Below, in pieces: positions 28,992 to 47,902 of a stretch of 50,312 nt of DNA. The translations under genes and the position numbers were made by a program. The stretch's first letter is position 1. Every line of letters begins with the position of its first letter. The DNA is from an uncultured bacterium (GTDB taxonomy: Bacteria; Auribacterota; Erginobacteria; Erginobacterales; Erginobacteraceae): assembly GCA_964465735.1 (NCBI GenBank), contig CAYXKT010000003.1, forward strand, positions 1 to 50,312. Direction: 5' to 3'. Below the pieces are notes generated by a model, which was not told the DNA's origin, did not search any database, and worked only from the letters and a program-made list of their open reading frames with translations.

Positions 28992-30527
28992 TTATTTTAA
29001 AAGCGCGGTGATGAACTTGTAGAGAGGGACCGGTTCCACCGACTCCCGGTTGCAGACGATCCGGACCGCCAGGGCCCCGACGGCGTTGCCGACCAACCCG
29101 ATTATATCCATCGGGTAACCGGCGGCGACGCAAGCCGAGGTGACCGCCAGATAAGCATCTCCGGCGCCGATCCGGTCCACTACTTCCTTGGAGAGGACCG
29201 GGGCTTGGTAAAAACCGCTTTGAGGCTGGTAGCCCAGGGAGCCGTTATGTCCCCGGGTGACAGTTACCCGCTGGCAGTTCATTTTCTCCGAGAGCTGGAG
29301 AATCATTTCCTCGAGGTTGCCGTATTTGTCGCTTAAAGCCAGGCGGATCTCCGGCTCGTCGATACAGATATAATCGGCCCTCGGGTACTTGGTGATCAGG
29401 TTAAAGCCGGTATTCGCGCTGTTGGTCTGGGTGTTGACGGAGAGGAAACGGGAATTCTCGCAGAGGGTTTCTACGATCTCCTTCCCGATGAAGCCGTTGC
29501 CGAAATCGGAAGCGAGCACCAGGTCGTACTGGGAGCAGACTTTCGCCAGGTGGTTACATACTTTCGTCGTGATCTCCTCCGGTGGATTTTGAGCGTTGAA
29601 GAAACAGATTTCGAACATCTTAGAGAGAAAGGCGGGATCGACGTAGCGGCGCTTGGTGATGGTGGGAGCGTCGTCGCGGTAGAAGAAGTTGGGGGTGATG
29701 TTGGACTTAAGCTTGGACCGGATGAAATGCTCCTGGGTATTCTCCTGGCCCAGCAAGGTGATCAGATCGACCTGATCACAGAAACCGGCGATATGGTTGG
29801 CGGTGGCCAGGACCCCGCCGGCAAAGGATTCCTGGTTGATGTAGCCGGCGGTGATCACCGTCTCCTTCCAGGCCTTTCCCAACGGGTGACAGTAATGATA
29901 CTCATCGATGATCGTGTCGCCGATCACCAGGACCTTGAGCTTTTTCAGGTCCTTCATCATTTCAATGATCCGGTCGGCGGAGTATTTCTTCCGAAATTCC
30001 TTCAGGAAGTGGTCGGCTTCTTCGTGATAGACGTTGAAGTGAACGTTGAGCAGTTCAGTGGAGCTGAAGGAGACTTCGTCGGTGAAGTGGATCCGGCCTC
30101 CGCCTGCCTTGACCGCTTCTTCCTCCTTGGAGATCTCTCCGGTCAGGTCCCGGGACCGGTCGGCGTAGTCGCTGCCCTTGGCATAGACGTCGGGCTGGAG
30201 ATATTTTAAAGTCTCGACCGCGGTCGGCCACTTGTTGATTGCCACGTAGTCAATGGTTTCGATCTCGGCTAAGGTCTCGGCCCGGAGCCGTTGGTTGAAG
30301 ACCGGTCGTCCGGGGCCTTTTCCGACATAGCGGTCCTCGGTTAGGGTGACCGCCAAAAGATCTCCTTCCCGCCGGGCGGCGGCGAAGTGCTTGAAATGTC
30401 CGGGGTGGAGGAGGTCGAAGACGCCGTGGCAGAGGACGACCTTCTTCCCCTTTTTTTTCAGCCCGGCGATGATCTTTGCCAGTTCGTCAATAGTCTTGAT
30501 CTTGTCGGATGGTTTAACTGTGCTCAT
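28992..30527 (-). CDS. Bifunctional nucleotidyltransferase (cytidylyl/adenylyl-transferase-like) / PfkB-family sugar kinase; RfaE/HldE-like but with swapped domain order
   Basis: 511 aa. The N-terminal KKVVLCHGVFDLLHPGHFKHFAAARREGDLLAVTLTED carries the HxGH nucleotidyltransferase motif. The C-terminal half carries the PfkB signature DRIGAGDAYLAVTSACVAAG. Confidence 0.75.
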   Translation of the reverse strand: MSTVKPSDKIKTIDELAKIIAGLKKKGKKVVLCHGVFDLLHPGHFKHFAAARREGDLLAVTLTEDRYVGKGPGRPVFNQRLRAETLAEIETIDYVAINKWPTAVETLKYLQPDVYAKGSDYADRSRDLTGEISKEEEAVKAGGGRIHFTDEVSFSSTELLNVHFNVYHEEADHFLKEFRKKYSADRIIEMMKDLKKLKVLVIGDTIIDEYHYCHPLGKAWKETVITAGYINQESFAGGVLATANHIAGFCDQVDLITLLGQENTQEHFIRSKLKSNITPNFFYRDDAPTITKRRYVDPAFLSKMFEICFFNAQNPPEEITTKVCNHLAKVCSQYDLVLASDFGNGFIGKEIVETLCENSRFLSVNTQTNSANTGFNLITKYPRADYICIDEPEIRLALSDKYGNLEEMILQLSEKMNCQRVTVTRGHNGSLGYQPQSGFYQAPVLSKEVVDRIGAGDAYLAVTSACVAAGYPMDIIGLVGNAVGALAVRIVCNRESVEPVPLYKFITALLK

Positions 30528-30655
30528 TAGTTAGTTCTCCTTGTTATTGTGGGGATAAACACAGAAGTAGGTTTATTTGTTCCTCACTCCGTTCGGGTTC
30601 CCCGCTGTGATAAGGATGTTGATCTGTCCGAATTCCTTGCAATGACTCGGAGGGC

Positions 30656-31651
30656 TTAGCCCAGGAATTTGAACCAATCCTTGGTGGCGTCGGCGATGGT
30701 CTCGGGGGTCCAGACCGGGGCCTGGCGCCAGTAGTCGATATTGTCGAGCAGGATCTTGACCCCTTCCTCGATGGTAATTTTCGGTTTCCAGCCCAACAGC
30801 CGATGGATTTTCGAGATGTCCCCGTGCGTACAATCGGGTTCGCCGGGCCGCTTGGGGATATGGATCGATTCTCCCCCCAGCAGTTCGACCAACCGGTTGA
30901 CCGAGACCGGGTCTCCGCCGGCTACGTTCATTACCTCTCCGGAAAGATCGGAGTCGGCGGCGGCCAGGCAGGCATCGACCACGTCGGTGACGAAGGTAAA
31001 GTCCCGGGTCTGGGTTCCGTCGCCGACCACGGTGAAGGGGTGGGAGGCCAGTTTCTGGGCGAGGAAGATCCCGAAGACCGCGCCGTAAGTCCCCGAGGTA
31101 CGGGAACGGGGTCCGTAAACATTGAAGAAACGCAGCGAGACCGCCGGCAGGCCGTAAACCTGCTCCCAATGTAGGACATACTGCTCACCAACGTACTTGG
31201 TCAGGGCGTAGGGATACTGGGGCCGGGCGGGGGCGGTTTCCGGGGTCGGGTAGAGATCGGGGATGCCGTAACAGGAAGAGGAGGCGGCGTAAACCAACCG
31301 CTTTACCCCGGCGGCCCGGGCGGCTTCCAGGACGGAGATCGTCCCGTCAACATTGGAACGATGGTAGGCGAAGGGCTGTTGGATCGAGGGGACGATGTCG
31401 GCCAGCGCGGCGATATGAAAGACCTGTTCCACCCCGGTAAAGAGGGGGGCGATGGCGGGATAATCAGAGATATCGACCCGGTGAAATTCGATTTTTTCGC
31501 TGCCGGGGAGCAGTTTGAGATTTTCCTTCCTGCCGGTGGAGAGGTTGTCGAGGACGATCACTCGATCGCCCCTTTTCAGCAGTGCCTCGGCCAGGTGGCT
31601 GCCGATAAATCCGGCTCCCCCGGTGACCAGGGATTTCCTCGGTGTAGTCAT
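30656..31651 (-). CDS. NAD-dependent nucleotide-sugar epimerase/dehydratase (extended SDR)
   Basis: 331 aa with the Rossmann motif VTGGAGFIGSHL, the catalytic YxxxK (YALTKYVGE) and the typical GalE/UXS-like layout. Confidence 0.85.
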   Translation of the reverse strand: MTTPRKSLVTGGAGFIGSHLAEALLKRGDRVIVLDNLSTGRKENLKLLPGSEKIEFHRVDISDYPAIAPLFTGVEQVFHIAALADIVPSIQQPFAYHRSNVDGTISVLEAARAAGVKRLVYAASSSCYGIPDLYPTPETAPARPQYPYALTKYVGEQYVLHWEQVYGLPAVSLRFFNVYGPRSRTSGTYGAVFGIFLAQKLASHPFTVVGDGTQTRDFTFVTDVVDACLAAADSDLSGEVMNVAGGDPVSVNRLVELLGGESIHIPKRPGEPDCTHGDISKIHRLLGWKPKITIEEGVKILLDNIDYWRQAPVWTPETIADATKDWFKFLG

Positions 31652-33378
31652 TGGTTTTTCCTTCTCTCCGGGTTGGGTCTGATCTCTGGAAACGAATCCT
31701 TGGTAATGATCCAGATTGCTTCTTCTCTCTGGAGGGTGAATTTATCCATCTCGCGGGCGGGGAAGAACCATTGGAAATTCCCCTCCATAAAGCGGGCCAT
31801 ATTGCGGTTCCAGCCCGGCGCGGGAATTCGGTCAGGCACCTCGGGCGCGATGTAAAGCCGATTTGCCTGGTTGATCGTCCCCGTGGCCAGCTCCCCGCGG
31901 ATATTATTCAGCATTACCGCCAGAGGCCGCAAGCGCTCTTCTAAGATATCAATCTGCTGATAACCGGCAAGTAGATTAAAGACCAGAACCGGGGTCAGGA
32001 TCAAGGTGATTATTAGTTTTCCCCGAAACCGGGGCTGGATGAGGATGGTGATTACAGCCGGGATGATCAGGGCCAGAAGGGCGTTGGGGATATACTGGTA
32101 GCGGAACTGGGTCAGGGGGTAGAGGGCCCGGTTGGTTGTCAGCCGGGCAGTGGCGACGGTGAAGAAATTGGTCAGATAGAGAAAAAAGCAGAAAGAGAGA
32201 AGCGCGATGAGGCGGCGCTGTCTTTTCCGGATTAGCCACCAGGCCCCCAGGAGCAAAAGGAAGAGAATCGCTCCTCCGGAAAAGGTCGCGACGGCCTCCA
32301 ATCGGTTGCCCAGAGAGAGGAGCCAGCCACCCAGATTCATATTGTCATCGAAAAAAACCGGTCGGGCAAGTTGGGGCCAGAGGGCGACCGCGACTCCGTT
32401 GTAAGCCAGGTTGAAAAAGACCAGGAGCACCCCTGCTCCCAGCTCTCCGGCGCTGGGAGCGGGCAGGGCCCCGGTCGACCCCCGGTGAAGCGCCCAGACC
32501 CCCAGGTAAAGAATATAAATCAGCAGTATAGCGGTGTCTCTCCATTGGAAGTATGGCCGGGGTGGGACAGCGAGGGTGAAGGGGAGGATGAAGATCGCCA
32601 CCGGCCAGAGCGCAAAAACCTCGGAAGTGAACATCCCGAGAAGAAAGAGGGCCCCGACCGGCAGCAGGAGGATCGTTCGCCGGTTCCTGAGATAGCCGAT
32701 ATAGATAATGTACCCGAGGAGGAAAGAGCAGAAACCGAGGATGATGAAGAGCTGGAAGGTCCAGGTCAGGATATCGGAGTGGGAATAGTGAAAGGCGAAG
32801 ACGGCTAAAAAGATGGCGGTCAGGGTCCGGCCGAGCGAGAGTCGGACCGCCAGCAGGTAGAGCAGCAGGATGCTCAGGCAGTAGCCGGCGAAATTGGTGA
32901 TATGGTTCCAGGTAAAGTCGGGGCTGAAAAGATGATGCTGAAGGTAGGGGACAAGGTGGGAGAGGGGACGGTAGGTCCCGTGTTTCCAGAGATCGAATGT
33001 CAGGACACCCTGCCAGGCCGGGGGCGGTGAGGAGGATTCCAACTGTTGGAAGACATAGAAGGCCGACCAGTAATCGCTTCGGGGTGGATTATAAAAGGTC
33101 GGCCGGTAAAGGAGAAAGAGTCCGGCGAAGAGAAGACAGAAGAAGGCCGTCATTTTCCCAGGCGTCCAGATCTTTCCCCGGAATTTCTTTTGGGGACGGT
33201 TGTTCGGGATCGGAGCGGGCATAGTGCCAGGATAATAACAGGAGGAAAAATCAACGGCAAACAAATTAGGGCGGATTATAATTGAAAAGCCGGATGGATT
33301 CGTGTAATTTATTCTTTTCCTGTGATTGATTGTCAAGGGGCGGCCGGGGTTGATCTTCCGGATTGCCTCCCAATCCAT
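31648..33378 (-). CDS. Polytopic membrane protein, GT-C/ArnT-like fold suspected
   Basis: 576-aa ORF with at least 11 hydrophobic segments. Its stop overlaps the epimerase start (ATGA). The start is ambiguous: an internal ATG at 33222 (MPAPIPNNRPQKKF...) would avoid overlap with the divergent transketolase gene. Confidence 0.6.
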   Translation of the reverse strand: MDWEAIRKINPGRPLTINHRKRINYTNPSGFSIIIRPNLFAVDFSSCYYPGTMPAPIPNNRPQKKFRGKIWTPGKMTAFFCLLFAGLFLLYRPTFYNPPRSDYWSAFYVFQQLESSSPPPAWQGVLTFDLWKHGTYRPLSHLVPYLQHHLFSPDFTWNHITNFAGYCLSILLLYLLAVRLSLGRTLTAIFLAVFAFHYSHSDILTWTFQLFIILGFCSFLLGYIIYIGYLRNRRTILLLPVGALFLLGMFTSEVFALWPVAIFILPFTLAVPPRPYFQWRDTAILLIYILYLGVWALHRGSTGALPAPSAGELGAGVLLVFFNLAYNGVAVALWPQLARPVFFDDNMNLGGWLLSLGNRLEAVATFSGGAILFLLLLGAWWLIRKRQRRLIALLSFCFFLYLTNFFTVATARLTTNRALYPLTQFRYQYIPNALLALIIPAVITILIQPRFRGKLIITLILTPVLVFNLLAGYQQIDILEERLRPLAVMLNNIRGELATGTINQANRLYIAPEVPDRIPAPGWNRNMARFMEGNFQWFFPAREMDKFTLQREEAIWIITKDSFPEIRPNPERRKNQ

Positions 33379-34191
33379 AAATCAGCGAGCTTGAAAAGCG
33401 TGAATACAGAGAAGATCAGCCGGGAGATCAGGCAGCGACTGGTGCGGATGCACCAGAAAGGGTCTCACTTCGGCTCGGCGATGTCGATTGTTGATATCCT
33501 GACTGTACTCTACTTCCGCGTGATGAATATTGACTCTCCGGACGACCCCGGCCGAGACCGGTTCATTCTCTCCAAAGGTCACGCCGCCTCCGCCTGGTAC
33601 GCCACTTTGGCTCGGAAAGGATTTTTCGATGAGAAACTTCTCGATACCTATCTCAAAGACGGCGGCCAGCTCTACGGCCATCCGGTTCGCTGCGGAGTCC
33701 CCGGGGTGGAGGCTTCGACCGGTTCGCTCGGCCACGGGATCAATATTGGATCCGGGATGGCTCTGGCCGGGAAGAACGATGGGAAAGATTATCGGGTTTA
33801 TGTTCTGATGGGGGATGGGGAGATCCAGGAGGGCAGTGTCTGGGAGGGGGCGATCCTGGCCGCCCGGCTGAAACTCGATAACCTGGTGGTGATCGTCGAT
33901 GCCAACAACCTCCAGGGTTTCGACCGGGTGGAGAATATCCAGCCGATCCGGACCTTCAAGAAAAAGTGGGAGGCCTTCGAGTGGGGGGCGCGTGAGGTGG
34001 ATGGCCACGATCACGACCAACTGGAGAGGGCTTTGCGCGAGGCACCCTTCGTCCCCGGCGCACCCTCGGTGGTGATCGCCCGGACGACCAAGTGCAAGGG
34101 AGTGAAGGAGATGGAGGATTGTTTTGAGTCCCACTATCTCTCGGTGCCGAAGGATAAGGTAGAGTGTTACTGCCGGGGACTGGAGGAGTGA
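33322..34191 (+). CDS. Transketolase, N-terminal (thiamine-diphosphate-binding) subunit
   Basis: GSHFGSAMSIVDILTVLYF, ILSKGHAASAWYA, GSLGHGINIGSGMALA and VLMGDGEIQEGSVWE are classic transketolase N-terminal motifs. The track start at 33322 is a GTG. TTG 33391 or GTG 33400 are more likely starts judging by the usual N-terminal length. Confidence 0.85.
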   Translation: MIDCQGAAGVDLPDCLPIHKSASLKSVNTEKISREIRQRLVRMHQKGSHFGSAMSIVDILTVLYFRVMNIDSPDDPGRDRFILSKGHAASAWYATLARKGFFDEKLLDTYLKDGGQLYGHPVRCGVPGVEASTGSLGHGINIGSGMALAGKNDGKDYRVYVLMGDGEIQEGSVWEGAILAARLKLDNLVVIVDANNLQGFDRVENIQPIRTFKKKWEAFEWGAREVDGHDHDQLERALREAPFVPGAPSVVIARTTKCKGVKEMEDCFESHYLSVPKDKVECYCRGLEE

Positions 34192-34193
34192 GA

Positions 34194-34307: not shown

Positions 34308-34308
34308 A

Positions 34309-35241
34309 ATGAGACAGGCATTCATAAACACACTGATGGAGTTGGCCGAACGGGACGACTCCATCTATCTCCTGACCGGGGACGCCGGTTTTACGATCCT
34401 GGAGCGGTTCCGGGACCGCTTCCCGGGTCGTTACTACAACGTGGGGATCGCCGAGGCGGCGATGATCGGCCTGGCCGCCGGGTTGGCGATGTCCGGGAAG
34501 ACCGTCTTTGTCTATTCGATCGTCCCCTTCGTCACGATGCGCTGCTTTGAGCAGGTCCGAATCGACCTCTGCTATCAGAACCTTCCGGTCAAGCTGGTCG
34601 GGGTGGGGCAGGGAGTCACCTACGGGACCGCCGGGGCCACCCACCACGCCATCGAGGATATCGCCGTGATGCGGGCCTTGCCCAATATGACCGTGATCTG
34701 CCCGGGGGGGCCGATCGAGACCAAAAAAGCCGTTGCCGCCTCTCTCGATCTTACCGGCCCCTGCTATATCCGACTGGGGAAGTCCGGCGAACCGACAGTC
34801 CACAAGAGTGAGGATATCGATTTCGCGATCGGTCGGGGGATCAGGGTTCGGAAAGGGGAGGGGGTAGCCCTGGTCGCCACCAGCAATATGGTCCCGACCG
34901 CGGTCGCCACCGCCGAATTACTGGAGAAGGAAGGCTGGAAGCCGGAAGTAATCAGTATGCATACGGTAAAGCCGATCGACCGGGAACTGCTGGCTGAGAC
35001 TGCCCGACGCTGCCCGCTGATCGCCACCCTGGAAGAACACAATCTGATCGGTGGTCTGGGTTCGGCGGTGGCGGAAGTGATCCTGGCGGATAATCTCCAC
35101 GCCCGGTTGATCACCTTCGGGATCCCCGATACTTACGCCCCGGTAGCCGGAAGCCAGGAGTATCTGCGGGAGTTGTTTGGCTTAACACCGTCCCAGATTG
35201 AGGCGGTAATCAGGGGAGAATTAGAGGATAGTAAGCAGTGA
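34309..35241 (+). CDS. Transketolase, C-terminal (pyrimidine-binding plus C-terminal domain) subunit
   Basis: 310 aa. GDAGFTILERF..., GIAEAAMIGLAAGLAMSGK and YGTAGATHHAIEDIAVMRALPNM match the transketolase/DXS pyrimidine-binding domain layout. Confidence 0.85.
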   Translation: MRQAFINTLMELAERDDSIYLLTGDAGFTILERFRDRFPGRYYNVGIAEAAMIGLAAGLAMSGKTVFVYSIVPFVTMRCFEQVRIDLCYQNLPVKLVGVGQGVTYGTAGATHHAIEDIAVMRALPNMTVICPGGPIETKKAVAASLDLTGPCYIRLGKSGEPTVHKSEDIDFAIGRGIRVRKGEGVALVATSNMVPTAVATAELLEKEGWKPEVISMHTVKPIDRELLAETARRCPLIATLEEHNLIGGLGSAVAEVILADNLHARLITFGIPDTYAPVAGSQEYLRELFGLTPSQIEAVIRGELEDSKQ

Positions 35242-36927: not shown

Positions 36928-37752
36928 ATGGTCGCTCAAGCCGACAACGTCGACCTCTCCATCATTATGCCCGCTCTCAACGAGGAGGAAAATATCGCCT
37001 CCGCGATTGAGCATACGCTGGCCGCCTTTTCCGCTCACGATTTGAATGGTGAGATTATCGTGGTCAATGACGGCTCCACTGATCGCACCCCGCAGCTTGT
37101 TGAAGAGATTGCCGGGCGAGACGGAAGGGGAAATATCCGGATGGTCCACCATCGAACTCCCCAGGGTTTGGGAGTGGCATTTCGCGATGGTGTGAAGGAA
37201 GCGGCAGGCAAGGTGGTCGCTTTTATGCCCGGCGACGACGAGAATGACCCGGGGGAGATTATGCGTTACTTCTGGCTGCTCACCCAGGTGGATATGGTGG
37301 TCCCCTTTGTCTATAACAAGGAAGTTCGGCCGAAGATCCGGACCTGGATCTCCAAAGTATTTCGGATGATCGTCAACGTCAGCTTCGCGGTCAACTTCAA
37401 CTATACCAATGGCACCGTTCTCTATCGCCGGGAAATCTTGGCCAGCGCTCTCAACCGCTCCGCCGGATTCTTTTTTCAGACCGAGAACGTGGTGAGGGCG
37501 GTCTGGAGCGGCTACCTCTTCGCCGAGGTGCCCTACCGGTTGGCGGTCCGCGCCGGTGGGGAGTCAAAGGCCATCTCCTTGAAGTCGTTGAGCCAGGTGA
37601 TGGGCGACTACCTGGCCCTGGTCCGGGAGATTTATTTCTCCCCGGAGAAAAAAGCCGGGCGGCAACCTGTCCCCGGCACTGTCTCCGAAATCCGTCGCCA
37701 CGAGACCATCCAGAGCGGCCTCGCCAAACCGGGTAAATACAGCCGGGAATAA
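36928..37752 (+). CDS. Family-2 glycosyltransferase, polyprenyl-phosphate sugar synthase type (DPM1/ArnC/GtrB-like)
   Basis: 274 aa with LSIIMPALNEEENI, IIVVNDGSTDRT, a FMPGDDENDP acidic motif, and length and layout typical of the family. Confidence 0.8.
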   Translation: MVAQADNVDLSIIMPALNEEENIASAIEHTLAAFSAHDLNGEIIVVNDGSTDRTPQLVEEIAGRDGRGNIRMVHHRTPQGLGVAFRDGVKEAAGKVVAFMPGDDENDPGEIMRYFWLLTQVDMVVPFVYNKEVRPKIRTWISKVFRMIVNVSFAVNFNYTNGTVLYRREILASALNRSAGFFFQTENVVRAVWSGYLFAEVPYRLAVRAGGESKAISLKSLSQVMGDYLALVREIYFSPEKKAGRQPVPGTVSEIRRHETIQSGLAKPGKYSRE

Positions 37753-37994: not shown

Positions 37995-38017
37995 CTAAAG
38001 GTTATTTTCGTTGATTG

Positions 38018-40120: not shown

Positions 40121-40125
40121 TCACA

Positions 40126-41187: not shown

Positions 41188-42266
41188 ACCGGGTTCTCCT
41201 CGGTGTCAGGATTGCCTCCTCCCGCTTGCTGGGGAGTAGGATCCCCTTTTTTGTCCAGCTGGTTCCGACCTCGCGGTGCAATCTCAATTGCCGATATTGC
41301 TTTGGAGAGTTTCACGAGCGGGAGGGGGAGCACTTCTCCCTGGAGAAGATCGGGCGGGTTATTGACGGGTTGGCGGGGCTGGGGACCCGGTTCATCCTTC
41401 TCACCGGCGGTGAGCCGATGATGCACCCGGAGATATCGGAGATTATTCGGAAGATCTCTGATCATCGGATCGAAATCATCCTGGGGACCAACGGCCTGCA
41501 GGTAGCGGAGCGGATCGAGGAACTGTCGCCGGTGAAGACGTTCAGTATCAGCCTCGACGGTCCCCGGGAGCATCACGATTACTACCGGGGAGCGGGTTCA
41601 TATGACACGGCGATGAAAGCGATCCAGGCGGCCCGGAACCGGGGGAAGGGTGTGCAGATCCAATTCACGATGACGAAAGACCTGGTGAAATCTTTCGAGT
41701 ATATCCGGTCGGTGGCCGGAGAACTGGGTTGTTTTATCGGGATCAATATTCTCCGGCCTCAGCGGCAGGCTGAAGGGGGGATGAAAAACCCGGATGAATC
41801 AACGGAGCAGGAGATTGATCTTTTTCTTGATTACCTGATCGAAACTCGTCCTCCGGAACTCCCCTATCCGCGTTCCCTGCTGAAGCGGTTGAAATCCTGG
41901 CCCTATGATTATGGCCGGGATGTCATTATCCGCCAGGAGGATCTCCGGGGATACGATGCCATCCGCTGTTCGGCGGGGAGGTTTATGATCGCCATCGACA
42001 ACCGGGGGAACATCTACCCCTGCGCCAAGTGGTTTTATACTCGTCCTCTGGAGAATTGTGGTGACGGGGATATCGCTCGAGCCTGGCGGGATCTGCCGGC
42101 GGTCCAGTGCGCGGCCTGTCTCGACCCGGGCTTCAACCTTCTCAACGATACGCTCAGGTTCAACCCCGCCTCCCTGCTGGGTCTGCTCCGGAATTTTACC
42201 AGGGAAAAGAAAGGAAGAAATAACCAGGAAGGACACGAAGAGGAGACAAAGCAAATGCCGGAGTAA
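41184..42266 (+). CDS. Radical SAM enzyme with SPASM/twitch-like C-terminus (rSAM-4)
   Basis: The track ORF starts at 41088. The preferred GTG at 41184 overlaps the rSAM-3 stop (GTGA). Motifs are CNLNCRYC, GGEPMMH, GTNG and SLDGPREHHDYYRGAGSY. The C-terminal part reads CSAGRFMIAIDNRGNIYPCA...CAACL. Confidence 0.8.
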   Translation: MNRVLLGVRIASSRLLGSRIPFFVQLVPTSRCNLNCRYCFGEFHEREGEHFSLEKIGRVIDGLAGLGTRFILLTGGEPMMHPEISEIIRKISDHRIEIILGTNGLQVAERIEELSPVKTFSISLDGPREHHDYYRGAGSYDTAMKAIQAARNRGKGVQIQFTMTKDLVKSFEYIRSVAGELGCFIGINILRPQRQAEGGMKNPDESTEQEIDLFLDYLIETRPPELPYPRSLLKRLKSWPYDYGRDVIIRQEDLRGYDAIRCSAGRFMIAIDNRGNIYPCAKWFYTRPLENCGDGDIARAWRDLPAVQCAACLDPGFNLLNDTLRFNPASLLGLLRNFTREKKGRNNQEGHEEETKQMPE

Positions 42267-42357: not shown

Positions 42358-42374
42358 CGGAAAGTCTTTATATT

Positions 42375-43685
42375 ATGCCCTATCCCAGGTTTAAAATCAG
42401 TATGCCGCTGGGGGAAGTAGCCCGCTCCCTGCTCAGTCTTTTCAGGCGGGGGGACCCTCAGGATCCGGAGAATTTCGCGGAGGCGTTCCGGCGGTTCGGC
42501 GGCTATGACCAGGTGCTCCTGACCGGTTCAGGCCGGGCCGGTTTTCGCCTGTTTTTGGAATGCGCCGGTTTCCCACCCGGATCTGAGATCATTTTTCCCG
42601 CCTATACATTTCACGTGATGCCGGCGGTGGCCGCCGAGTGCGGACTGCGGCCGGTCTTCGCCGATGTTGACCCTGCGACCTGGAACATTTCGCCGGAGTC
42701 GATCCGGGCGCGGCTTACCGAGCGGACCCGGGCGATTGTTCCCACCCATCTCTTTGGTGTCCCCGCCCCGATGGAGGAGATCTCTGCCATCGCCGGCGAG
42801 AGGGGTCTGATGGTGATCGCGGATTGCGCCCACGCCCTGGGGGCTCGTTATCGGGGAAAACCGGTGGGAACAATCGGCGACGCCGCTCTTTTTACCTTTG
42901 CGATGAGTAAGAATCTGCCCTGTTGGGGGGGAGGAGCTGTGGTTACTTGTGACCGCGCTCTGGCGGAGCGGATGCGGGAACGGATTGAAAGCAGTAATCT
43001 CCTTTCGGCCGCGGTGATCATCCGCCGACAGCTTTCCAATCTTCCCGGCATTCTCGGCACCCAATCCGCGATCTTTCCCTGGACGCTCTACCCGGCGCTG
43101 AGGGTCGCGGATTACCTGGAGAGCGATTTCTTTGATCGGCCGTTTGTTGAAGCAGTGACCGGTAATCAGTTATCGGTAGTCGATGATCGGTCCTTGGGGG
43201 ACGGGGCAGCCGCGGCCGGCCAGAAATCCCGGGTGGCCGGGATTTCGCCCTTTCAGGCCGCCGTGGGTCTGCGCCAGCTTAATCGTTTACCTAACTGGCT
43301 GGAAAGGCAGGCCGTCAACGCTCGCTATCTCCGCGGGCGGTTGGAAGTCTGTCCCGGCCTCCAGCTCCAGAAAGAACCGTCGGGCACCCGGTCCTCGTTT
43401 CTCTATGTCCGGGCCCGGGCCGAGGAGCCGGACCGGATCCGGAAGCGATTGCTCCGGCGAGGGATCGACACCAAGCCGGACGATATGCGCGACTGTTCCG
43501 CACTGAGCATCTTTCCTCCCGGTCCGCCCTGCCCGGTGGCCGGGAGTTTGGGGGAGCGCTGTATCGAACTGCCCTGCAGTCCGTTCTATTCCCAGCGGCA
43601 GATGAAGAGAATCGCCGATCGAATTCTCCTCGCCCTCTCCTCAGCGCGGACGGTTAACGATCCGGACCACCGGCCGGTTAAATGA
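42375..43685 (+). CDS. DegT/DnrJ/EryC1/StrS-family PLP-dependent sugar aminotransferase
   Basis: The track ORF starts at 42297. The preferred ATG is at 42375 (MPYPRFKISMPLG). Motifs are LLTGSGRAGFRLFLE, PAYTFHVMPAVAAECG, VPTHLFGVPAPMEEI, ADCAHALGARYRGKPVG and FTFAMSKNL (candidate PLP lysine). Confidence 0.8.
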   Translation: MPYPRFKISMPLGEVARSLLSLFRRGDPQDPENFAEAFRRFGGYDQVLLTGSGRAGFRLFLECAGFPPGSEIIFPAYTFHVMPAVAAECGLRPVFADVDPATWNISPESIRARLTERTRAIVPTHLFGVPAPMEEISAIAGERGLMVIADCAHALGARYRGKPVGTIGDAALFTFAMSKNLPCWGGGAVVTCDRALAERMRERIESSNLLSAAVIIRRQLSNLPGILGTQSAIFPWTLYPALRVADYLESDFFDRPFVEAVTGNQLSVVDDRSLGDGAAAAGQKSRVAGISPFQAAVGLRQLNRLPNWLERQAVNARYLRGRLEVCPGLQLQKEPSGTRSSFLYVRARAEEPDRIRKRLLRRGIDTKPDDMRDCSALSIFPPGPPCPVAGSLGERCIELPCSPFYSQRQMKRIADRILLALSSARTVNDPDHRPVK

Positions 43686-45181
43686 GCCAGAACACTTCCG
43701 ACCAGAGATTTTCGGAGTTGCTCAACGACGGGGAGCGCTATGGCCTGCGGGTGCTCTTCCTGCACAAGGCGGAGTCGGCGGAGATCAGCCACGAACCGGT
43801 CTTGCCGACCGGGATCGCCATCCTCGCCGCCCTCTGCCGGCGCAAACAAATCCCCGTCCGCTGTCTCGATTACTCAGTGATCCCCTACGACCCTGAACGG
43901 TTACGGAAAATCGTCCGGGAAGAGAAGATTAATGTGGTCGGGCTATCGGCCACCACTCAGGCGATCCCCTGGGCGTACCGCGCCATCCGCGATCTCCAGT
44001 CGATCAAGGCAAATCCCGTGATCCTGATCGGCGGTCCCCACGTCACCGTCCTCTACAAAGAGGCGATCGCCAACGGGGCGGATATCGTGGTCAGGAACGA
44101 AGGGGAACTGACCTTTCTGGAGTTGCTGCCGGTTCTGGACAGTCCCGCTCCGCGGAAACTGGGCGACAGATTGGCGGCGGTGAAGGGGATCGCCTATCGG
44201 AACTCGGCTGGAGAGATCGCTGTCAATCCCCCTAACGATAGGCTCCGGGATCTCGACCTGATCCCGTTCCCCGATCGGGACAGTTTTGAATTCCCGGAGA
44301 AGTATCATATGGCGGTCCGGATCGTGCGGGGCAACAGCTTCGCTATCCTGGGAACCCGGGGCTGTTCGGGACACTGTTTTTTCTGCTCCCGGGCGGTCTT
44401 TGGGAATACGATCTCCGCCCGCTCGGCGGAGAATATGGTGGAAGAGATCTGTCTGGTTAAGGAACGGTACCCGAAGATCACCCAGTTCGAGTTCTTGGAC
44501 GACTATCTTCTCTTCGATCTCGAGCGGATGAACCGGTTTTGCGATCTTTTGATCGAGCGGCAGCTGGGGTTGTACTGGTCGGCGGGAAACACCCGGGTGG
44601 ATAATATCGATCGGAGAACTTTAGAGAAGATGAAGGCTGCCGGTTGCTTCAAGGTTAATTTCGGCATCGAGGCCGGGACCGACAAGATTCTGAAGTCGAT
44701 CAACAAGGAGATCACGGTGGACGAGGCGAGGCGGGCGGTGGAAGTTGCGAAAGCAGCCGGTCTCTACGTCGGAGTCTTCTTTATCCTCGGCCATCATCGG
44801 GAGACGGTCGCCGATATTGAGCGGACGATCTCTCTGGCCCGGTCTTTGAAAGCTGATGCCGTCCAGTTCACCATCAACACCCCCTGGCCGGGGACGGCAA
44901 TGCATACATACCTGGATCGGAGAGGCCTGTTGCTTTCCAAGGAATGGGCCGACTACCAGTACTTTCAGAAACCGGTTTTCCGGACCGAGCACCTGACACC
45001 TCTGCTCCTTCAAAAGCTGCTGCGCCGGGCATACCTCAGTTATTATCTCGATCCGGCGCTTTACCTCCGGCATTTGCTGAATCTGCTCAAACGCCGGCAA
45101 TTCTATCTGTACTTTACGACGCTCTCCCTGATACTCTCCAACCTGTTTCAACGGTCGCCGCGTCGGAGAAAGGGAAAATGA
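43682..45181 (+). CDS. B12-binding-domain (class B) radical SAM enzyme (rSAM-5)
   Basis: 499 aa. The N-terminal Rossmann-like cobalamin-binding layout reads VVGLSATTQAIPWAYRAIRDL...VILIGGPHVT. It is followed by RGCSGHCFFC (CxxxCxxC). The start overlaps the aminotransferase stop (ATGA). Confidence 0.8.
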   Translation: MSQNTSDQRFSELLNDGERYGLRVLFLHKAESAEISHEPVLPTGIAILAALCRRKQIPVRCLDYSVIPYDPERLRKIVREEKINVVGLSATTQAIPWAYRAIRDLQSIKANPVILIGGPHVTVLYKEAIANGADIVVRNEGELTFLELLPVLDSPAPRKLGDRLAAVKGIAYRNSAGEIAVNPPNDRLRDLDLIPFPDRDSFEFPEKYHMAVRIVRGNSFAILGTRGCSGHCFFCSRAVFGNTISARSAENMVEEICLVKERYPKITQFEFLDDYLLFDLERMNRFCDLLIERQLGLYWSAGNTRVDNIDRRTLEKMKAAGCFKVNFGIEAGTDKILKSINKEITVDEARRAVEVAKAAGLYVGVFFILGHHRETVADIERTISLARSLKADAVQFTINTPWPGTAMHTYLDRRGLLLSKEWADYQYFQKPVFRTEHLTPLLLQKLLRRAYLSYYLDPALYLRHLLNLLKRRQFYLYFTTLSLILSNLFQRSPRRRKGK

Positions 45182-46230
45182 AAATAAACGATCTGGCATA
45201 TTTTGGCTGGTCGATCCTGAAGATGCATCTCAATCAGGGTAGCCGCATCCCGTTGAGCGTTCACGTCGGGTTGACCAATCGCTGCAACAATCGGTGCCGG
45301 TACTGCAATTTCCAGGCTCTTCCCCAGAAGGACACCTGGACCACGGAGGCTTTACTCCGCGTCCTGGAAGAGATGAAGAAGGCCGGGACACGTCGGGTCC
45401 AGTTGACCGGCGGCGAACCGATGCTCCGGCGGGATCTGGGAGAGGTGGTGGCCCGGGCCAAAGCTTTAGGGATGTTTGTCGGCGTCTCGACCAACGGCTA
45501 TGAAGTACCCGGCCGCCTGGACGAACTCCGGCCGGCCGACCTCGTCCAGATCTCCTACGATGGCCCCCCCGAAATCCACGGCTATCTGCGGGGAGAGAGG
45601 AGCGTTGCCGAAACGGCGGCGGCGATCGACGCCCTTTTGGTCAATGGGATACCGGTCTGGACCAATACGGTGCTCACCTCCGCCAATGCCGGGTACGTCG
45701 AAGAGATCGTGGAATACGCCGGGCGAAGGGGGATGGTGGCTAATTTTGTTTTGCTTGATTATTTCCTCCAGCCCGAAGAGCACTTTCATCCGGCATTAAA
45801 AGATATCCAGGACCTGGTGTTAAAGAGGGAAGAACGGCGCCAGGTCCTCTCCCGGCTGATCGAGTTGAAGAGGGCCGGCCGGCCGGTGGCCGGTTCGATA
45901 CCCTACTTTAAAAACGCTCTGGATTGGCCCTATGACGATCGGACCACCAGCCCCGAATCGTCGCCGCTGTACCGTTGTTGGTTTGGGAGGGCAGTGGCCC
46001 ACCTGGAAGCCGACGGGAAACTCTACGCCTGCGGGATGGGCGTGGGGAGAGTGCCGGGAATCGACGTGCGGGAGGTCGGATTCGAACAGGCCTGGCAACA
46101 ACTCAAGCCGCTGCCGGATTGTCAATCCTGTACGATGGCTTGCGGGGTGGAGGCGAATCTACTTTTTTCTTTGAATATTGGCAGCATACTGAATTGGATC
46201 AAGCAGTTGGCGGGGTCGAAGGCAAGCTGA
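45178..46230 (+). CDS. Radical SAM enzyme with SPASM/twitch-like C-terminus (rSAM-6)
   Basis: The track ORF starts at 44944. The preferred ATG at 45178 overlaps the rSAM-5 stop (ATGA). Motifs are CNNRCRYC, GGEPMLR, STNG and SYDGPPEIHGYLRGERS. The C-terminal part reads CWFGRAVAHLEADGKLYACG...CQSCTMAC. Confidence 0.8.
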   Translation: MKINDLAYFGWSILKMHLNQGSRIPLSVHVGLTNRCNNRCRYCNFQALPQKDTWTTEALLRVLEEMKKAGTRRVQLTGGEPMLRRDLGEVVARAKALGMFVGVSTNGYEVPGRLDELRPADLVQISYDGPPEIHGYLRGERSVAETAAAIDALLVNGIPVWTNTVLTSANAGYVEEIVEYAGRRGMVANFVLLDYFLQPEEHFHPALKDIQDLVLKREERRQVLSRLIELKRAGRPVAGSIPYFKNALDWPYDDRTTSPESSPLYRCWFGRAVAHLEADGKLYACGMGVGRVPGIDVREVGFEQAWQQLKPLPDCQSCTMACGVEANLLFSLNIGSILNWIKQLAGSKAS

Positions 46231-46309
46231 AACGACGGAGAGAAATTCAAGAATTGAGTTGTAGTATGTCAGTCAATAAAATAAAGATAGAAGTATTTCC
46301 TGATTTTCG

Positions 46310-47902
46310 ATGAAGAAACCCTGGGTTATCCATCCGTTCTTGATGGCGCTCTTCCCCGGTCTTTTTTTTGTTACATATAATATCGGGGAGATAACCTTGA
46401 GTCGGGTTGACGCGATCGGCAGCTTGGTTATCCTGCCGCTGTTGTCTGCGCTGTTCTGGCTGACCCTGAGCTGGATAGTGAAAAATCGGCAAAAAGCCGG
46501 GTTGTTGGTTTCACTTTTCTTGTTCGTAATCTTTTCATACTATCCGGTTTACGATACCCTGCTGCGTATTTTTCGATATGAAGTTGACTATAGCAAAATA
46601 CTCAATGATGTCGTTCTCTCGCGGATACTTCTCTCCGGCAGCCTGATAATAATGGCCGGTTTGAGCTGGCGGATAATCAAAACCCGGAAATCTCTCGCGG
46701 ATGTCACCAGGGTTATCAACGTTTTCGCGGCCGGCCTGGTGGGGATTTCCCTGGTTCAATTGGGGGTCTATCTATATCAAAATTATCCGGCACTGAGAAG
46801 CGACGACCGGCTGGGATTGATCGTTGAAGAGGGGATTGTTAGGGGCGGCATTGAAAGTAGCGCGGGGCGCCGACTTCCCGATATCTATTATATTGTTCCC
46901 GACCGCTACGCCGGCGATAAATCGCTGAAAGAATTTTTCGGTTTCGATAACTTCGAGTTTATTGAATATTTGCGCAAAAAGGGATTCTATGTGGCCGCCG
47001 ACAGTTACGCGAATTATCCGAAAACATCCTGGTCGCTGGCCGCGACTTTGAATTATGAATACCTCGATGACTTAAGCGGTTTGTATCCGAAGGGGGTCAT
47101 AGATTTAAAGCCGTTGCATAAGAGAATTAAATATCATAAAGCGGGAAATTTCCTGCGGGCTAATGGTTATAAGTATATTCATTTCGGGTCGGGGGATGTG
47201 GAAAGGACGAATCGAAGTCCGATGGCCGATCAGAATATCGCCTACGCCTCGGCGACCAACTTAGTGGTGTCTTTGTATGAAGTATCGATCTTCTACCATA
47301 TCGCCCAATTATTTGGCTGGGAATATGATACCCGCCTCATCCATCGGAAAAGGATATTGTTCACTTTTGAAAAATTAGCGGAAATGCCTGACCTGGACAG
47401 AGATCAGCCAAAATTTATCTTTGCTCATCTGCTTTTTCCCCATCCGCCTTATGTATTTGACCGGAACGGCGATCGTCCAGCCCCGGATCAGTCAAGGGAT
47501 GAAAGGGAGAAATATATCTCCCAGTTGAAGCATTCCAACCAAAAGTTCAGGGAGCTTATTGATCAGTTGTTGATGAAATCTCCGGTACCCCCGATCATTA
47601 TTCTTCAAGCCGATGAAGGTCCCTTGCCGGACCGGTTTCAAAGCGACGAAAGAAATTTTGATTGGCGCTTGGCCAGCGGAGCCGAACTGCGGGAGAAGTT
47701 CGAGATCTTGAATGCATACTATTTGCCCGGCTTCGATTACAATCTTTTATATCCAGGGATAACGCCGATAAATACCTTCCGCCTGATATTTAACCATTAC
47801 TTTAACGCCGGATATGAATTATTGCCGGATAAGAACTACACGTTTGAAAAAATATTATACCCTTATGAATTTATCGAAGTGACGGAGCGGCTAAATGAAT
47901 AA
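46310..47902 (+). CDS. Membrane-anchored alkaline-phosphatase-superfamily protein (LtaS/EptA/sulfatase-like transferase)
   Basis: 530 aa with ~5 N-terminal TM helices. The soluble domain has PDIYYIVPDRYAG, NYPKTSWSLAATLN (candidate Thr nucleophile), FIFAHLLFPHPPYVF and ILQADEGP. There is no C/S-x-P-x-R formylglycine motif. Confidence 0.6.
   Translation: MKKPWVIHPFLMALFPGLFFVTYNIGEITLSRVDAIGSLVILPLLSALFWLTLSWIVKNRQKAGLLVSLFLFVIFSYYPVYDTLLRIFRYEVDYSKILNDVVLSRILLSGSLIIMAGLSWRIIKTRKSLADVTRVINVFAAGLVGISLVQLGVYLYQNYPALRSDDRLGLIVEEGIVRGGIESSAGRRLPDIYYIVPDRYAGDKSLKEFFGFDNFEFIEYLRKKGFYVAADSYANYPKTSWSLAATLNYEYLDDLSGLYPKGVIDLKPLHKRIKYHKAGNFLRANGYKYIHFGSGDVERTNRSPMADQNIAYASATNLVVSLYEVSIFYHIAQLFGWEYDTRLIHRKRILFTFEKLAEMPDLDRDQPKFIFAHLLFPHPPYVFDRNGDRPAPDQSRDEREKYISQLKHSNQKFRELIDQLLMKSPVPPIIILQADEGPLPDRFQSDERNFDWRLASGAELREKFEILNAYYLPGFDYNLLYPGITPINTFRLIFNHYFNAGYELLPDKNYTFEKILYPYEFIEVTERLNE

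Follow-up and report, generated by a model that had tools for sequence, protein, structure and literature searches.

We analysed a stretch of 50,312 nucleotides from an uncultured bacterium (contig CAYXKT010000003.1 of assembly GCA_964465735.1), referred to below as the window and always meant at its full length, and describe a locus at 28992-47902 in which six radical S-adenosylmethionine enzymes (rSAM-1 to rSAM-6) lie among genes for sugar activation, amination and glycosyl transfer (Table 1). The locus is a real conserved gene cluster of an uncultivated anaerobic Auribacterota bacterium, and its most likely role is to make an unusual amino sugar by means of six radical enzymes and to attach it to the cell surface via a lipid carrier. 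Its overall design is probably, and we say this with moderate confidence, that of a cell-envelope glycosylation pathway that follows the lipid-carrier logic of the Arn system, with an anaerobic radical tailoring block inserted into it. An earlier reading of the letters of this DNA (the original prediction) had proposed that the locus makes an amino-substituted, C-alkylated or otherwise radical-tailored sugar and delivers it through a lipid carrier; gene content and gene association argue for part of this proposal, and the chemical steps themselves we infer. All 13 genes or open reading frames (ORFs) listed there are present, and Pfam confirmed the domains of the annotated ones, i.e., the nucleotidyltransferase-PfkB fusion (NT-PfkB), the short-chain dehydrogenase/reductase (SDR), the transketolase, the family 2 glycosyltransferase (GT2), the DegT-type aminotransferase and six Radical_SAM domains, in the profile-HMM check that had been recommended. 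The six CxxxCxxC strings were also found in the sequence, as were the three predicted start-stop overlaps at 41184 (GTGA, rSAM-3/4), 43682 and 45178 (ATGA, rSAM-5/6), to which a fourth (ATGA) is added on the minus strand, between the SDR gene and the gene of a 576-aa membrane protein. All of the evidence is computational, and about ten genomic contexts were inspected by hand; the ORF listing covered ORFs of at least 150 aa in the window (80 aa from 20 kb onward).

The genes at 28992-33378 (NT-PfkB fusion, SDR and 576-aa protein) are on the minus strand, divergent from an operon that extends from the transketolase to rSAM-6. The clustering is not a matter of chance: independent contigs show the same gene order. 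Among named organisms, the nearest are Candidatus Erginobacter occultus (78%, for the 576-aa membrane protein) and Ca. Euphemobacter frigidus, which belong to Auribacterota in the Planctomycetes-Verrucomicrobia-Chlamydiae (PVC) group, and the layout was found again in two other Auribacterota contigs at 53-89% identity, with all 13 genes in L014 and most of them in L007. In Ca. Euphemobacter frigidus (L007), a divergent glycosyltransferase of the GT-C type is followed by the two transketolase subunits (TK-N and TK-C), rSAM-1, GT2, rSAM-2, -3 and -4, DegT, rSAM-5 and rSAM-6, at 58-87% identity; beyond rSAM-6 there are an SDR, an extra SPASM rSAM, a GT2, a second B12-binding rSAM (B12-rSAM) and PMT_2/discoidin GT-Cs. 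The other contig, a 130-kb metagenome contig (L014), keeps the divergent trio (NT-PfkB 80%, SDR 82%, GT-C 53%) and the operon as far as that locus extends. Partial versions were seen as well: L009 carries rSAM-2, -3 and -4, DegT, rSAM-5 and -6, then an SDR, two PMT_2/discoidin GT-Cs and a sulfatase, and L006 carries only DegT, rSAM-5, rSAM-6, an SDR and a PMT_2/discoidin GT-C; the block formed by these last five genes is therefore separable. Orthologues are 78-80% (TK-N) and 87-89% (rSAM-1) identical in L007 and L014, 85% (rSAM-2) and 71-78% (rSAM-4) identical in L007, L009 and L014, and 62-65% (DegT) and 74-80% (rSAM-6) identical in L006, L007 and L009. The PMT_2/discoidin architecture follows rSAM-6 and an SDR in L006, L007 and L009, and in the window, too, the system reaches past the boundary drawn by the original prediction, to the PMT_2/discoidin GT-C gene. 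As a separate observation, the minus strand of L007 (13785-17211) holds a second set of SPASM rSAM, GT2 and B12-rSAM, only 20-29% identical to the window genes, giving eight rSAM genes in ~15 kb.

A core of the cluster is spread over distant phyla, and, as judged by sequence comparison, rSAM-3 is the most widely conserved marker of this cassette: its full-length homologues show 41-50% identity in Omnitrophota, Patescibacteria and Dependentiae, as against 36-37% in Oligoflexia and Kuenenia and 31% in archaea. Omnitrophota (L011) and Patescibacteria (L012) share the gene order SPASM rSAM, GT2, rSAM-3 orthologue, class III aminotransferase, B12-rSAM and two homologues of the 576-aa protein, with identities of 30% for rSAM-2, 30-31% for GT2, 47-50% for rSAM-3 and 32-34% for the 576-aa homologues; one of the latter two is fused to TPR repeats, PMT_2 GT-Cs are nearby, and overlaps of 4 nt join the rSAM, aminotransferase and B12-rSAM genes of L012. 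Orthologues of rSAM-2 (27-30% identity) always adjoin the GT2, both in these two loci and in an Oligoflexia operon (L095) that contains a SPASM rSAM, a 510-aa NT-PfkB fusion of the same reversed domain order as that of the window, and a GT2 with 44% identity to the window GT2; an rSAM-3-like gene, a B12-rSAM, another rSAM and an SDR adjoin it, and the domains of the 510-aa fusion are also nearest to HldE, below the cut-off. L096 includes an rSAM-3 orthologue, a class III aminotransferase and a B12-rSAM, then unassigned membrane proteins, a TPR protein and PMT_2, and neither GT2 nor SPASM rSAM was seen in it. In Dependentiae (L094), a GT9 heptosyltransferase fragment adjoins four rSAM-3 paralogues and a B12-rSAM, and neither a GT2 nor a GT-C is in view. 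In the Kuenenia locus (L013, GCA_039794105.1), six or seven rSAMs, one of them rSAM-3-like, occur together with GT1, GT2, GT4, nucleotidyltransferase and SDR genes. Finally, in an archaeal metagenome-assembled genome (L097, GCA_018656555.1, 7342-11002) an rSAM-3 homologue starts one base after the end of AglB/STT3, and an SDR, GT2s, another rSAM, PMT_2, a B12-rSAM and a GT4 are also present, which points to tailoring by radical SAM enzymes in an N-glycosylation cluster of archaea. We did not rely on an Oligoflexia thiamine diphosphate (ThDP) enzyme and a class I aminotransferase as non-orthologous stand-ins for the transketolase and DegT; the former resembles an ordinary acetolactate synthase, so that both genes may be housekeeping neighbours.

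An important control is provided by loci around generic rSAM relatives. A metagenome scan with the rSAM-3 alignment returned mostly unrelated rSAMs via the generic motifs, and 31 of the loci around such relatives (25-40% identity) with a length of at least 10 kb served as the control set. None of the 31 had a relative of the GT2, of either GT-C or of the NT-PfkB fusion, and three contained a B12-rSAM. Conversely, across phyla, 7-8 of the 10 contexts with the rSAM core also hold GT2 genes of the dolichol-phosphate mannose synthase (DPMS)/ArnC-like kind and GT-C genes. Co-occurrence of the rSAM genes with the sugar genes, whose absence the original prediction had named beforehand as one outcome that would refute it, was found in related and distant genomes alike.

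Two of the distant loci deserve comment in their own right. In the Kuenenia locus, two or three of the rSAMs are B12-binding, and one looks split across two ORFs. The S-layer O-glycan of Kuenenia is reported to be unusually heavily methylated, at positions inferred from mass alone, in a paper that names no genes for it (PMC5088730); a link between this glycan and the rSAM locus is possible, as a lead and not as evidence. The nearest relative of rSAM-5 outside Auribacterota, with 35% identity, is in Margulisiibacteriota (L010, GCA_042562385.1), where five B12-binding rSAM genes are interleaved with GT2s, methyltransferases and an asparagine-synthase homologue, i.e., in another rSAM-rich cluster of glycan type.

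The enzymes that may build and activate the sugar are the NT-PfkB fusion, the SDR and the split transketolase. The fusion has an N-terminal nucleotidyltransferase with an HxGH motif and a C-terminal PfkB sugar kinase with a GAGD motif (Pfam CTP_transf_like 45.7 and PfkB 74.7 bits). Both domains are far nearer to HldE domains than to other families in NCBIfam, and both stay below the level of HldE equivalogs: the best scores are 100 bits to rfaE_dom_I (cut-off 345), 96 bits to rfaE_dom_II (cut-off 181) and 151 bits to PRK11316 (cut-off 521). The fusion named by the original prediction is thus present, and it is specifically HldE-like with a reversed domain order, since in HldE itself the kinase is N-terminal and the adenylyltransferase is C-terminal. 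The SDR (Pfam Epimerase 208.9 bits) scores 175 bits to GalE, 170 to TviC, 155 to RmlB and 109 to HldD, none of which reaches its NCBIfam cut-off.

The split transketolase that had been predicted is present as well, and it is not an ordinary one. TK-N (Transketolase_N 125.5 bits) has the GDG...N and His motifs, and TK-C matches the split transketolase of Carboxydothermus hydrogenoformans (6yaj), an enzyme with known biochemistry, with 223 bits; the two-subunit architecture and the ThDP and donor-site motifs are the same as in that enzyme (6yaj/6yak), and the equivalents of R358 and H473 are retained. Unlike the C. hydrogenoformans enzyme, the locus enzyme has GTAG in place of GEDG at the acceptor site, i.e., Ala in place of D469 of the Escherichia coli transketolase, and Lys in place of Arg at the equivalent of R520, and its gene sits in an rSAM operon. 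Both changes are common to all three locus-linked transketolase orthologues (window, L007 and L014). D469 and R520 govern acceptor specificity, and engineered changes at these residues move transketolase off phosphorylated 2-hydroxy aldoses (PMC7661550, PMC5073344). In Euphemobacter the TK-C gene overlaps rSAM-1, and the transketolase therefore belongs to the operon. The variant transketolase probably moves a C2 ketol unit to an unusual aldehyde, which would amount to chain extension or branching.

The logic of ADP-heptose and of the lincosamide GDP-octose builds and activates C7 and C8 sugars. The locus is similar to these pathways (HldE; LmbR-N-P-K-O and LmbS) in combining a PfkB kinase, a nucleotidyltransferase of the cytidylyltransferase fold, a C-C enzyme of the pentose-phosphate type, an SDR and a DegT; in place of the transaldolase, however, it has a transketolase with an altered acceptor site. 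The strongest rival explanation builds on this similarity: a purely cytoplasmic pathway to an NDP-heptose-type or other higher sugar, used by Leloir glycosyltransferases for lipopolysaccharide or capsule, with the GT-C genes as separate neighbours. It would account for the closeness of both NT-PfkB domains to HldE, for the 109-bit match of the SDR to the ADP-heptose epimerase, for the heptosyltransferase fragment that adjoins the Dependentiae rSAMs with no GT2 or GT-C in view, and for the fact that DegT enzymes as well as BlsE, DesII, viperin and AbmM act on nucleoside-linked substrates. We nevertheless consider it unlikely, given the contrast between the 7-8 of 10 contexts in which GT2 and GT-C co-occur with the rSAM core and the complete lack of such co-occurrence in the control loci. 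Moreover, the cassettes of the candidate phyla radiation (CPR) and Omnitrophota have an omega-transaminase and no nucleotide-sugar enzymes, neither GmhA nor GmhB is found in the window, and the transketolase is without the Asp that is needed for normal 2-hydroxy-aldose acceptors.

The radical enzymes form the largest part of the locus. All six match Radical_SAM with 60-90 bits, i.e., over the Pfam gathering score of 29.5 bits, and the CxxxCxxC cluster motif was read in each of them; a weak match of 20 bits in the NT-PfkB protein is below the cut-off and was taken as spurious. rSAM-1, -3, -4 and -6 are paralogues with 25-35% identity. The five rSAMs that do not bind B12 have a C-X17-C pair followed by CxxC or CxCxC, which suffices for one auxiliary cluster, and Pfam SPASM is over its cut-off in rSAM-2 only. 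The cysteines are at 46/50/53 plus 281, 299, 328 and 331 in rSAM-1 and at 36/40/43 plus 267, 285, 315, 318 and 322 in rSAM-6; the rSAM-3 family shows no variation at C38/42/45, C273, C291 and C322, and almost none at C319. Among solved structures, BlsE, a sugar-nucleoside rSAM, is the best relative of rSAM-1 (4e-12) and rSAM-4 (5.5e-15) and the nearest to rSAM-3 by sequence, and the best relatives of rSAM-6 are SkfB and AbmM (8wm2). The AlphaFold2 (AF2) model of rSAM-3 (predicted local distance difference test, pLDDT, 92.8) has as its N-terminus a single basic, hydrophobic helix ahead of the core; in Foldseek, BlsE is again at the top (E 2e-15, TM-score 0.65-0.69), followed by SuiB, SkfB, anSME, PqqE, MoaA, DesII, viperins, AbmM and SpeY. 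Identity of the locus rSAMs to the solved sugar rSAMs of antibiotic pathways is only ~16-21%.

rSAM-5 has class B architecture, with an N-terminal B12-binding domain and an rSAM domain. Orthologues with more than 60% identity form only ~10 clusters, and the next relative is at 35%. Its best NCBIfam scores are to HpnJ (168 bits, cut-off 577.6) and BchE (163 bits, below cut-off), among solved structures the diol dehydratase AprD4 (6fd2, 4.6e-19) is nearest to it, and the methylase models give 50-102 bits against cut-offs of 360-700; it belongs to none of the characterised methylase families tested (GenK, PhpK, HpnR, KedN5 and Mmp10-type). The relatives HpnJ, BchE and AprD4 are non-methylating and the methylase models score lower, and thus the C-alkylation put forward in the original prediction is only one of several possibilities for a sugar that is tailored by radical chemistry.

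The solved relatives of the locus enzymes come largely from antibiotic biosynthesis (BlsE for rSAM-1, -3 and -4, AprD4 for rSAM-5 and AbmM for rSAM-6), and this raises the possibility of an aminoglycoside- or aminocyclitol-like cluster, with oxidation and amination of the BtrN/BtrS kind, deoxygenation of the AprD4 type and methylation of the GenK type. SpeY and DesII among the structural relatives of rSAM-3, and the DegT-family aminotransferase of the locus, are in line with such chemistry. The setting differs from that of the antibiotic enzymes (BlsE, DesII, BtrN/SpeY, AprD4, AbmM and GenK), however: this is an envelope locus of uncultivated anaerobes, not an actinomycete cluster, with up to six rSAMs, situated among surface-protein and GT-C genes and conserved in small-genome CPR and Dependentiae and beside an archaeal AglB, and neither a resistance gene nor an exporter nor a sugar-phosphate cyclase (DOIS or EEVS) is part of it. 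An antibiotic of this kind is, in our judgement, highly improbable.

We assign an equally low probability to a cluster for a peptide that is made by ribosomes and modified after translation (RiPP), in which the rSAMs and a B12-rSAM C-methyltransferase, as in proteusins, would mature a peptide or surface protein that the sugar genes then glycosylate. Peptide maturases do appear among the matches (StsB, WgkB, PapB, SuiB and SkfB for the rSAMs; ApyD, with 132 bits, for rSAM-5), yet all such scores are far under their cut-offs, there is no protease or export ABC transporter, and the conserved partners are GT2, aminotransferase and GT-Cs. A RiPP recognition element (RRE) is absent from the rSAM-3 model and was not detected by Pfam in the other rSAMs, and no precursor-like small ORF is found in the spacers, which hold decayed PDDEXK_3 and 23S rRNA-intervening-sequence protein (IVP) genes. 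The RiPP explanation was rejected on these two grounds, i.e., neither a precursor nor an RRE domain. The analysis thus favours a glycosylation locus, as the original prediction had it, over a RiPP, cofactor or antibiotic cluster.

A third alternative follows from the family matches, and we regard it as improbable, although less so than the two preceding ones. The locus could make the head group of a glycolipid, as in hopanoid or calditol synthesis: the GT2 would glycosylate a membrane lipid, the B12-rSAM would contract or rearrange the sugar ring to a carbocycle, as do HpnJ and Cds, the remaining rSAMs and the aminotransferase would decorate it, and the end product would be the lipid itself and not a glycosyl donor. 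HpnJ is the best NCBIfam match of rSAM-5, HpnH is that of rSAM-4 (86 bits, cut-off 225), and the SDR matches HpnA (84 bits); the basic, hydrophobic N-terminal helices of rSAM-1, -3, -4 and -6 could sit on a membrane. Hopanoid and calditol pathways join a GT2, a B12-rSAM and an aminotransferase on a lipid-linked sugar, and the hopanoid side-chain route is a known case of this combination. The scores are, however, 3-4 times under the cut-offs (577 and 225 bits), and the HpnH match of rSAM-4 is no better than its matches to many unrelated rSAM families. In addition, squalene-hopene cyclase, HpnG and HpnK are absent from the window, several co-conserved GT-Cs imply a donor role for the lipid-linked sugar, and the hosts include small-genome Patescibacteria and Dependentiae. 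Membership in the hopanoid pathway was accordingly rejected, with scores far under cut-off and partner genes absent from the window.

The position between a twitch rSAM and the B12-rSAM is taken by an aminotransferase that is not the same in all lineages. In Auribacterota it is DegT, whose Pfam match (219 bits, cut-off 19.8) falls in two stretches around an internal insertion; the catalytic Lys170 is present in FAMSK, and the nearest NCBIfam family is DesI (146 bits, cut-off 650), while ArnB scores 118 bits (cut-off 631). In Omnitrophota and Patescibacteria a class III omega-transaminase, whose closest relatives are PigE and putrescine aminotransferase, is found in the same slot. Such a non-orthologous replacement at a fixed position indicates that the amination of a carbonyl is the conserved step, and not the enzyme. 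In the anaerobic logic of BtrN/BtrS, an rSAM dehydrogenase is paired with an aminotransferase, and the pairing of twitch rSAM and aminotransferase in the locus fits this logic. With an omega-transaminase in this slot, a substrate other than a nucleotide sugar also becomes conceivable.

The lipid-carrier part of the proposal rests on the GT2 and on two kinds of GT-C protein. In PDB, the GT2 matches the dolichol-phosphate mannose synthase of Pyrococcus best (5mlz, 5e-12, residues 8-215, across the catalytic domain); three ArnC structures come next, with ArnC aligned over residues 10-227, and then GtrB, and the scores are modest. The GT2 is accordingly nearest to DPMS and ArnC, as had been predicted, and its sequence would fit a polyprenyl-phosphate sugar synthase. 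The 576-aa protein had been called GT-C-like: neither Pfam nor NCBIfam supports this, with no match to any model, including those of PMT, PMT_2 and TMTC (DUF1736), and a sequence profile of the family gave no match in PDB; only fold comparison worked. In its AF2 model (pLDDT 89, pTM 0.90), all Foldseek matches with a probability of 1.0 are GT-C proteins, i.e., STT3, AglB, PglB, Pmt4, DPY19, ALG3, ALG9 and AftB. On the strength of the model, the 576-aa protein has a GT-C fold, in a family without a Pfam or NCBIfam model. The loop residues D77, D150 and R85-P86 are invariant in this family and D50 is nearly so. The family is rare (116 representatives at E<=1e-30 and 183 at E<=1e-10, among 1.84 billion), and its homologues in a set of 5.8 billion proteins are all annotated as hypothetical, with no Pfam domain. 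Some members have long C-terminal TPR arrays, and more distant ones have LamG or discoidin domains. GT-C plus TPR is the architecture of the TMTC protein O-mannosyltransferases, and the TPR arrays are thus a hint, not proof, of a protein acceptor. The likeness to TMTC and PMT includes the GT-C fold, a YRPL-type loop motif, invariant loop aspartates and, in some members, TPR or lectin-type domains; the differences are that the window copy has no TPR array, that there is no sequence match, and that TM-scores to solved GT-Cs are ~0.4. The small discoidin protein of the window shares 38-46% identity with the C-terminal ends that the GT-Cs of L006, L007 and L009 have.

The last gene of the locus had been assigned to an LtaS/sulfatase-family membrane protein, and here the support is weak: the Pfam Sulfatase score is 24.2 bits against a cut-off of 25, and no NCBIfam or PDB sequence match was found. 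Read by eye, the protein begins with a hydrophobic segment and contains IVPDRY, KTSWS and HPPY motifs, with Asp198 and Thr239 in candidate motifs, and the gene is also present on near-identical copies of the locus (contigs L001-L003). The sulfatase/LtaS/EptA-like assignment is therefore kept as a weak, sequence-based one. The idea that one of the rSAMs matures this protein, as an anaerobic sulfatase-maturating enzyme (anSME), was dropped; the nucleophile, by eye, is Thr and not the Cys/Ser of a Cys/Ser-x-P-x-R motif, and no rSAM of the locus has the full anSME-type SPASM motif.

Taken as a whole, the locus resembles the Arn, GtrAB and PpgS-Rv3779 systems, with an SDR and a DegT acting on the sugar and with the expected DPMS/ArnC-like GT2 and PMT_2-type GT-C. 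In contrast to Arn and GtrAB, no ArnA formyltransferase/decarboxylase, ArnD, ArnE/F flippase or GtrA was found in the window; in contrast to Arn, the locus adds six rSAMs, the variant transketolase, the HldE-like activator and a second GT-C family, and its GT2 has no transmembrane helices. Equivalog level is not reached either (ArnC 48 bits versus 529; ArnB 118 bits versus 631).

By analogy with the three-part logic of Arn and GtrAB, in which a sugar activated in the cytoplasm is loaded onto polyprenyl phosphate and then handed on by GT-C enzymes beyond the membrane, we propose the following pathway. A non-standard sugar phosphate, possibly of higher carbon number, would be formed by the variant split transketolase and the HldE-like enzyme and activated to an NDP-sugar, which the SDR would epimerise or dehydrate. 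The GT2 would load the sugar onto polyprenyl phosphate. The five SPASM/twitch rSAMs may oxidise, epimerise or dehydrate unactivated sugar carbons, with at least one of them creating the carbonyl that the aminotransferase would aminate in the manner of BtrN/BtrS, and the B12-rSAM may methylate or rearrange the sugar. After flipping, the 576-aa GT-C and the PMT_2/discoidin GT-C would pass the product to a surface acceptor, plausibly a protein, and the membrane protein of the alkaline-phosphatase family may add a phospho substituent. Tailoring could take place at either of two stages. DegT, and the nucleoside-linked substrates of the closest solved rSAMs, favour the nucleotide-sugar stage; the lipid-linked stage is favoured by the N-terminal helices of the rSAMs and by the cassettes of CPR and Omnitrophota, which have an omega-transaminase but no enzymes for nucleotide sugars. 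A bolder version, which we offer as speculation and rate as doubtful, is that sugar tailoring on a lipid carrier is a so far unrecognised mode, widespread in strictly anaerobic 'dark-matter' bacteria and archaea (Auribacterota, Omnitrophota, Patescibacteria and others). In this version, the paralogous twitch rSAMs, the B12-rSAM and an exchangeable aminotransferase would turn a sugar on polyprenyl phosphate into an amino sugar that is chain-extended (C8 or longer, through the acceptor-altered transketolase) or ring-rearranged, and the TMTC-like GT-C family would attach it to surface proteins.

It should be noted that several points weigh against the proposal of a radical-tailored amino sugar on a lipid carrier. 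No enzyme of the locus reaches any curated NCBIfam cut-off, and every substrate assignment is therefore made by analogy; the related loci are all metagenomic, and none has a known product. The RiPP maturases SuiB and SkfB are structurally almost as close to rSAM-3 as BlsE is, so that the fold of rSAM-3 alone leaves the substrate unsettled. With regard to the carrier, the GT2 scores only 49 bits to DPMS and is soluble, without a transmembrane helix, and GT2 enzymes also perform other jobs; no flippase of the GtrA or ArnE/F type is found in the window; and the GT-C fold matches of the 576-aa protein are distant (TM-scores 0.36-0.43, E ~1e-3). The usual substrates of DegT enzymes are nucleotide sugars, and this speaks against tailoring of a lipid-linked sugar. 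Finally, neither a GmhA isomerase nor a GmhB phosphatase is among the window ORFs that were listed or scanned with Pfam.

Table 1. Genes of the rSAM locus and two associated upstream genes, with positions in the window
Feature	Position	Strand	Evidence
HldE-like bifunctional NT-PfkB, reversed domain order	28992..30527	-	Pfam CTP_transf_like + PfkB
Extended SDR of NDP-sugar epimerase/dehydratase type	30656..31651	-	Pfam Epimerase/GDP_Man_Dehyd
Polytopic membrane protein of a rare family with predicted GT-C fold, 576 aa	31648..33378	-	AF2 fold, Foldseek
Split transketolase, N-terminal (ThDP-binding) subunit, TK-N	33322..34191	+	Pfam Transketolase_N
Split transketolase, C-terminal subunit, TK-C	34309..35241	+	Pfam Transket_pyr + Transketolase_C
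rSAM-1, C-terminal 4-Cys twitch-like motif	35691..36824	+	Radical_SAM 68.6 bits
GT2, DPMS/ArnC-like	36928..37752	+	Glycos_transf_2 88.1 bits
rSAM-2, radical SAM/SPASM	38508..39629	+	Radical_SAM 60 bits, SPASM 27.9 bits
rSAM-3, twitch-type	40126..41187	+	Radical_SAM 82.2 bits
rSAM-4, twitch-type paralogue	41184..42266	+	Radical_SAM 89.5 bits
DegT-family pyridoxal phosphate-dependent aminotransferase	42375..43685	+	DegT_DnrJ_EryC1 219 bits
rSAM-5, B12-binding (class B)	43682..45181	+	B12-binding 73.7 bits, Radical_SAM 75.5 bits
rSAM-6, twitch-type paralogue	45178..46230	+	Radical_SAM 90.2 bits
Membrane-anchored protein, candidate of the alkaline-phosphatase superfamily (sulfatase/LtaS/EptA-like)	46310..47902	+	Pfam Sulfatase 24.2 bits, sub-threshold
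PMT_2 (ArnT/PMT-type) GT-C with C-terminal F5/8 type C (discoidin) domain	24476..26923	-	PMT_2 30.2 bits, F5_F8_type_C 32 bits
Small membrane-anchored F5/8 type C protein	27877..28464	-	F5_F8_type_C 49.5 bits

Comparison with homologues indicates some corrections of start sites. The gene of the 576-aa protein probably starts at M53 (33222), which gives 524 aa, because the homologues have ~520 aa, and the true start of TK-N is probably at 33391 or 33400, because the orthologues begin there; for DegT, gene callers place the start at 42402, which gives 427 aa. The operon is broken by spacers of 450-750 bp with decayed PDDEXK_3 and IVP genes. The large spacers at 37.8-38.4 kb and 39.6-40.1 kb contain frameshifted remnants at 38015-38313 and 39676-40110; the PDDEXK_3 remnant is of the GxxExxY type, and the IVP remnant derives from a four-helix-bundle gene. 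Intact IVP genes fill the matching spacers of the orthologous L009 (2196-2678 and 8991-9440), which suggests repeated insertion of small genes at the same sites. Repeats are present in other spacers: 12.9 copies of the tandem 7-mer TACCGAT between TK-N and TK-C (34218-34307), the tandem 8-mer GGAGTGAT with 6.2 copies after rSAM-1 (36810-36859) and 4.1 copies after rSAM-4 (42260-42292), and related inverted repeat copies, e.g., CAGTGAGCAGT and ACTGCTCACTG, that flank the spacer between TK-C and rSAM-1. Rfam and tRNA scans of the window gave no matches, and a promoter and terminator scan was uninformative, with the same counts as in shuffled sequence. The GC content is 0.43-0.46 over 46-50 kb and 0.51-0.60 across the remainder of the locus.

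On the 3' side, the sulfatase-like gene is directly followed (48231-50183, plus strand) by a gene for a polytopic membrane protein of 650 aa, which has a soluble domain at its C-terminus and no Pfam or NCBIfam match. On the other side, a toxin-antitoxin pair with overlapping genes, i.e., a FitA-like ribbon-helix-helix antitoxin and a PIN-domain toxin (27164-27852, plus strand), sits between the genes of the PMT_2 GT-C and of the small discoidin protein. A 1080-aa polytopic membrane protein (21187-24429, minus strand) has no family except a faint YfhO match (E 0.05); its C-terminus, a soluble domain followed by a last transmembrane helix, has a YfhO-like topology, and it may be a further lipid-carrier-dependent glycosyltransferase. 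The region of its gene has an unusually strong AT skew (0.315). Farther upstream, a run of secreted or surface proteins is encoded on the minus strand (2252-20103), including a 3173-aa Ala/Gly/Thr-rich surface protein with internal repeats and no Pfam domain; several of these proteins have long Pro/Thr/Ser linkers, two of them also with FG-GAP-like repeats. One may speculate that they are plausible O-glycosylation targets of the neighbouring GT-Cs.

The general kind of system is known, both as lipid-carrier glycosylation by GT2 and GT-C enzymes and as rSAM tailoring of sugars. Curated NCBIfam families, solved structures and papers provided no match for the gene combination, the number of rSAMs and the acceptor-altered transketolase, nor for the reversed HldE-like fusion, the GT-C family without a Pfam or NCBIfam model and the spread over uncultivated phyla. 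The original prediction was aware of no characterised sugar pathway with this many rSAMs and a split transketolase, and no characterised pathway was matched in NCBIfam either, where nothing reaches a cut-off. None of the open-access papers searched describes a cluster that joins rSAMs with transketolase, heptose, O-antigen, undecaprenyl phosphate, GT-C or AglB, and in the text of the Auribacterota genome paper, which notes only cobalamin transporters, the cluster is absent.

To our knowledge, radical SAM sugar chemistry is known almost only from antibiotic pathways. If the pathway proposed here is correct, such chemistry would become routine in the envelope glycans of anaerobic uncultivated phyla, the locus would supply at least six unassigned enzymes, and a rare GT-C family without a Pfam or NCBIfam model would be added, with an architecture that hints at protein glycosylation. 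The natural transketolase variant bears an acceptor-site change like those that engineers introduce. The conserved core would also help to annotate thousands of proteins that are now listed as radical SAM or hypothetical in the genomes of CPR, Omnitrophota and the PVC group, and it may explain unusual modified surface sugars of these organisms.

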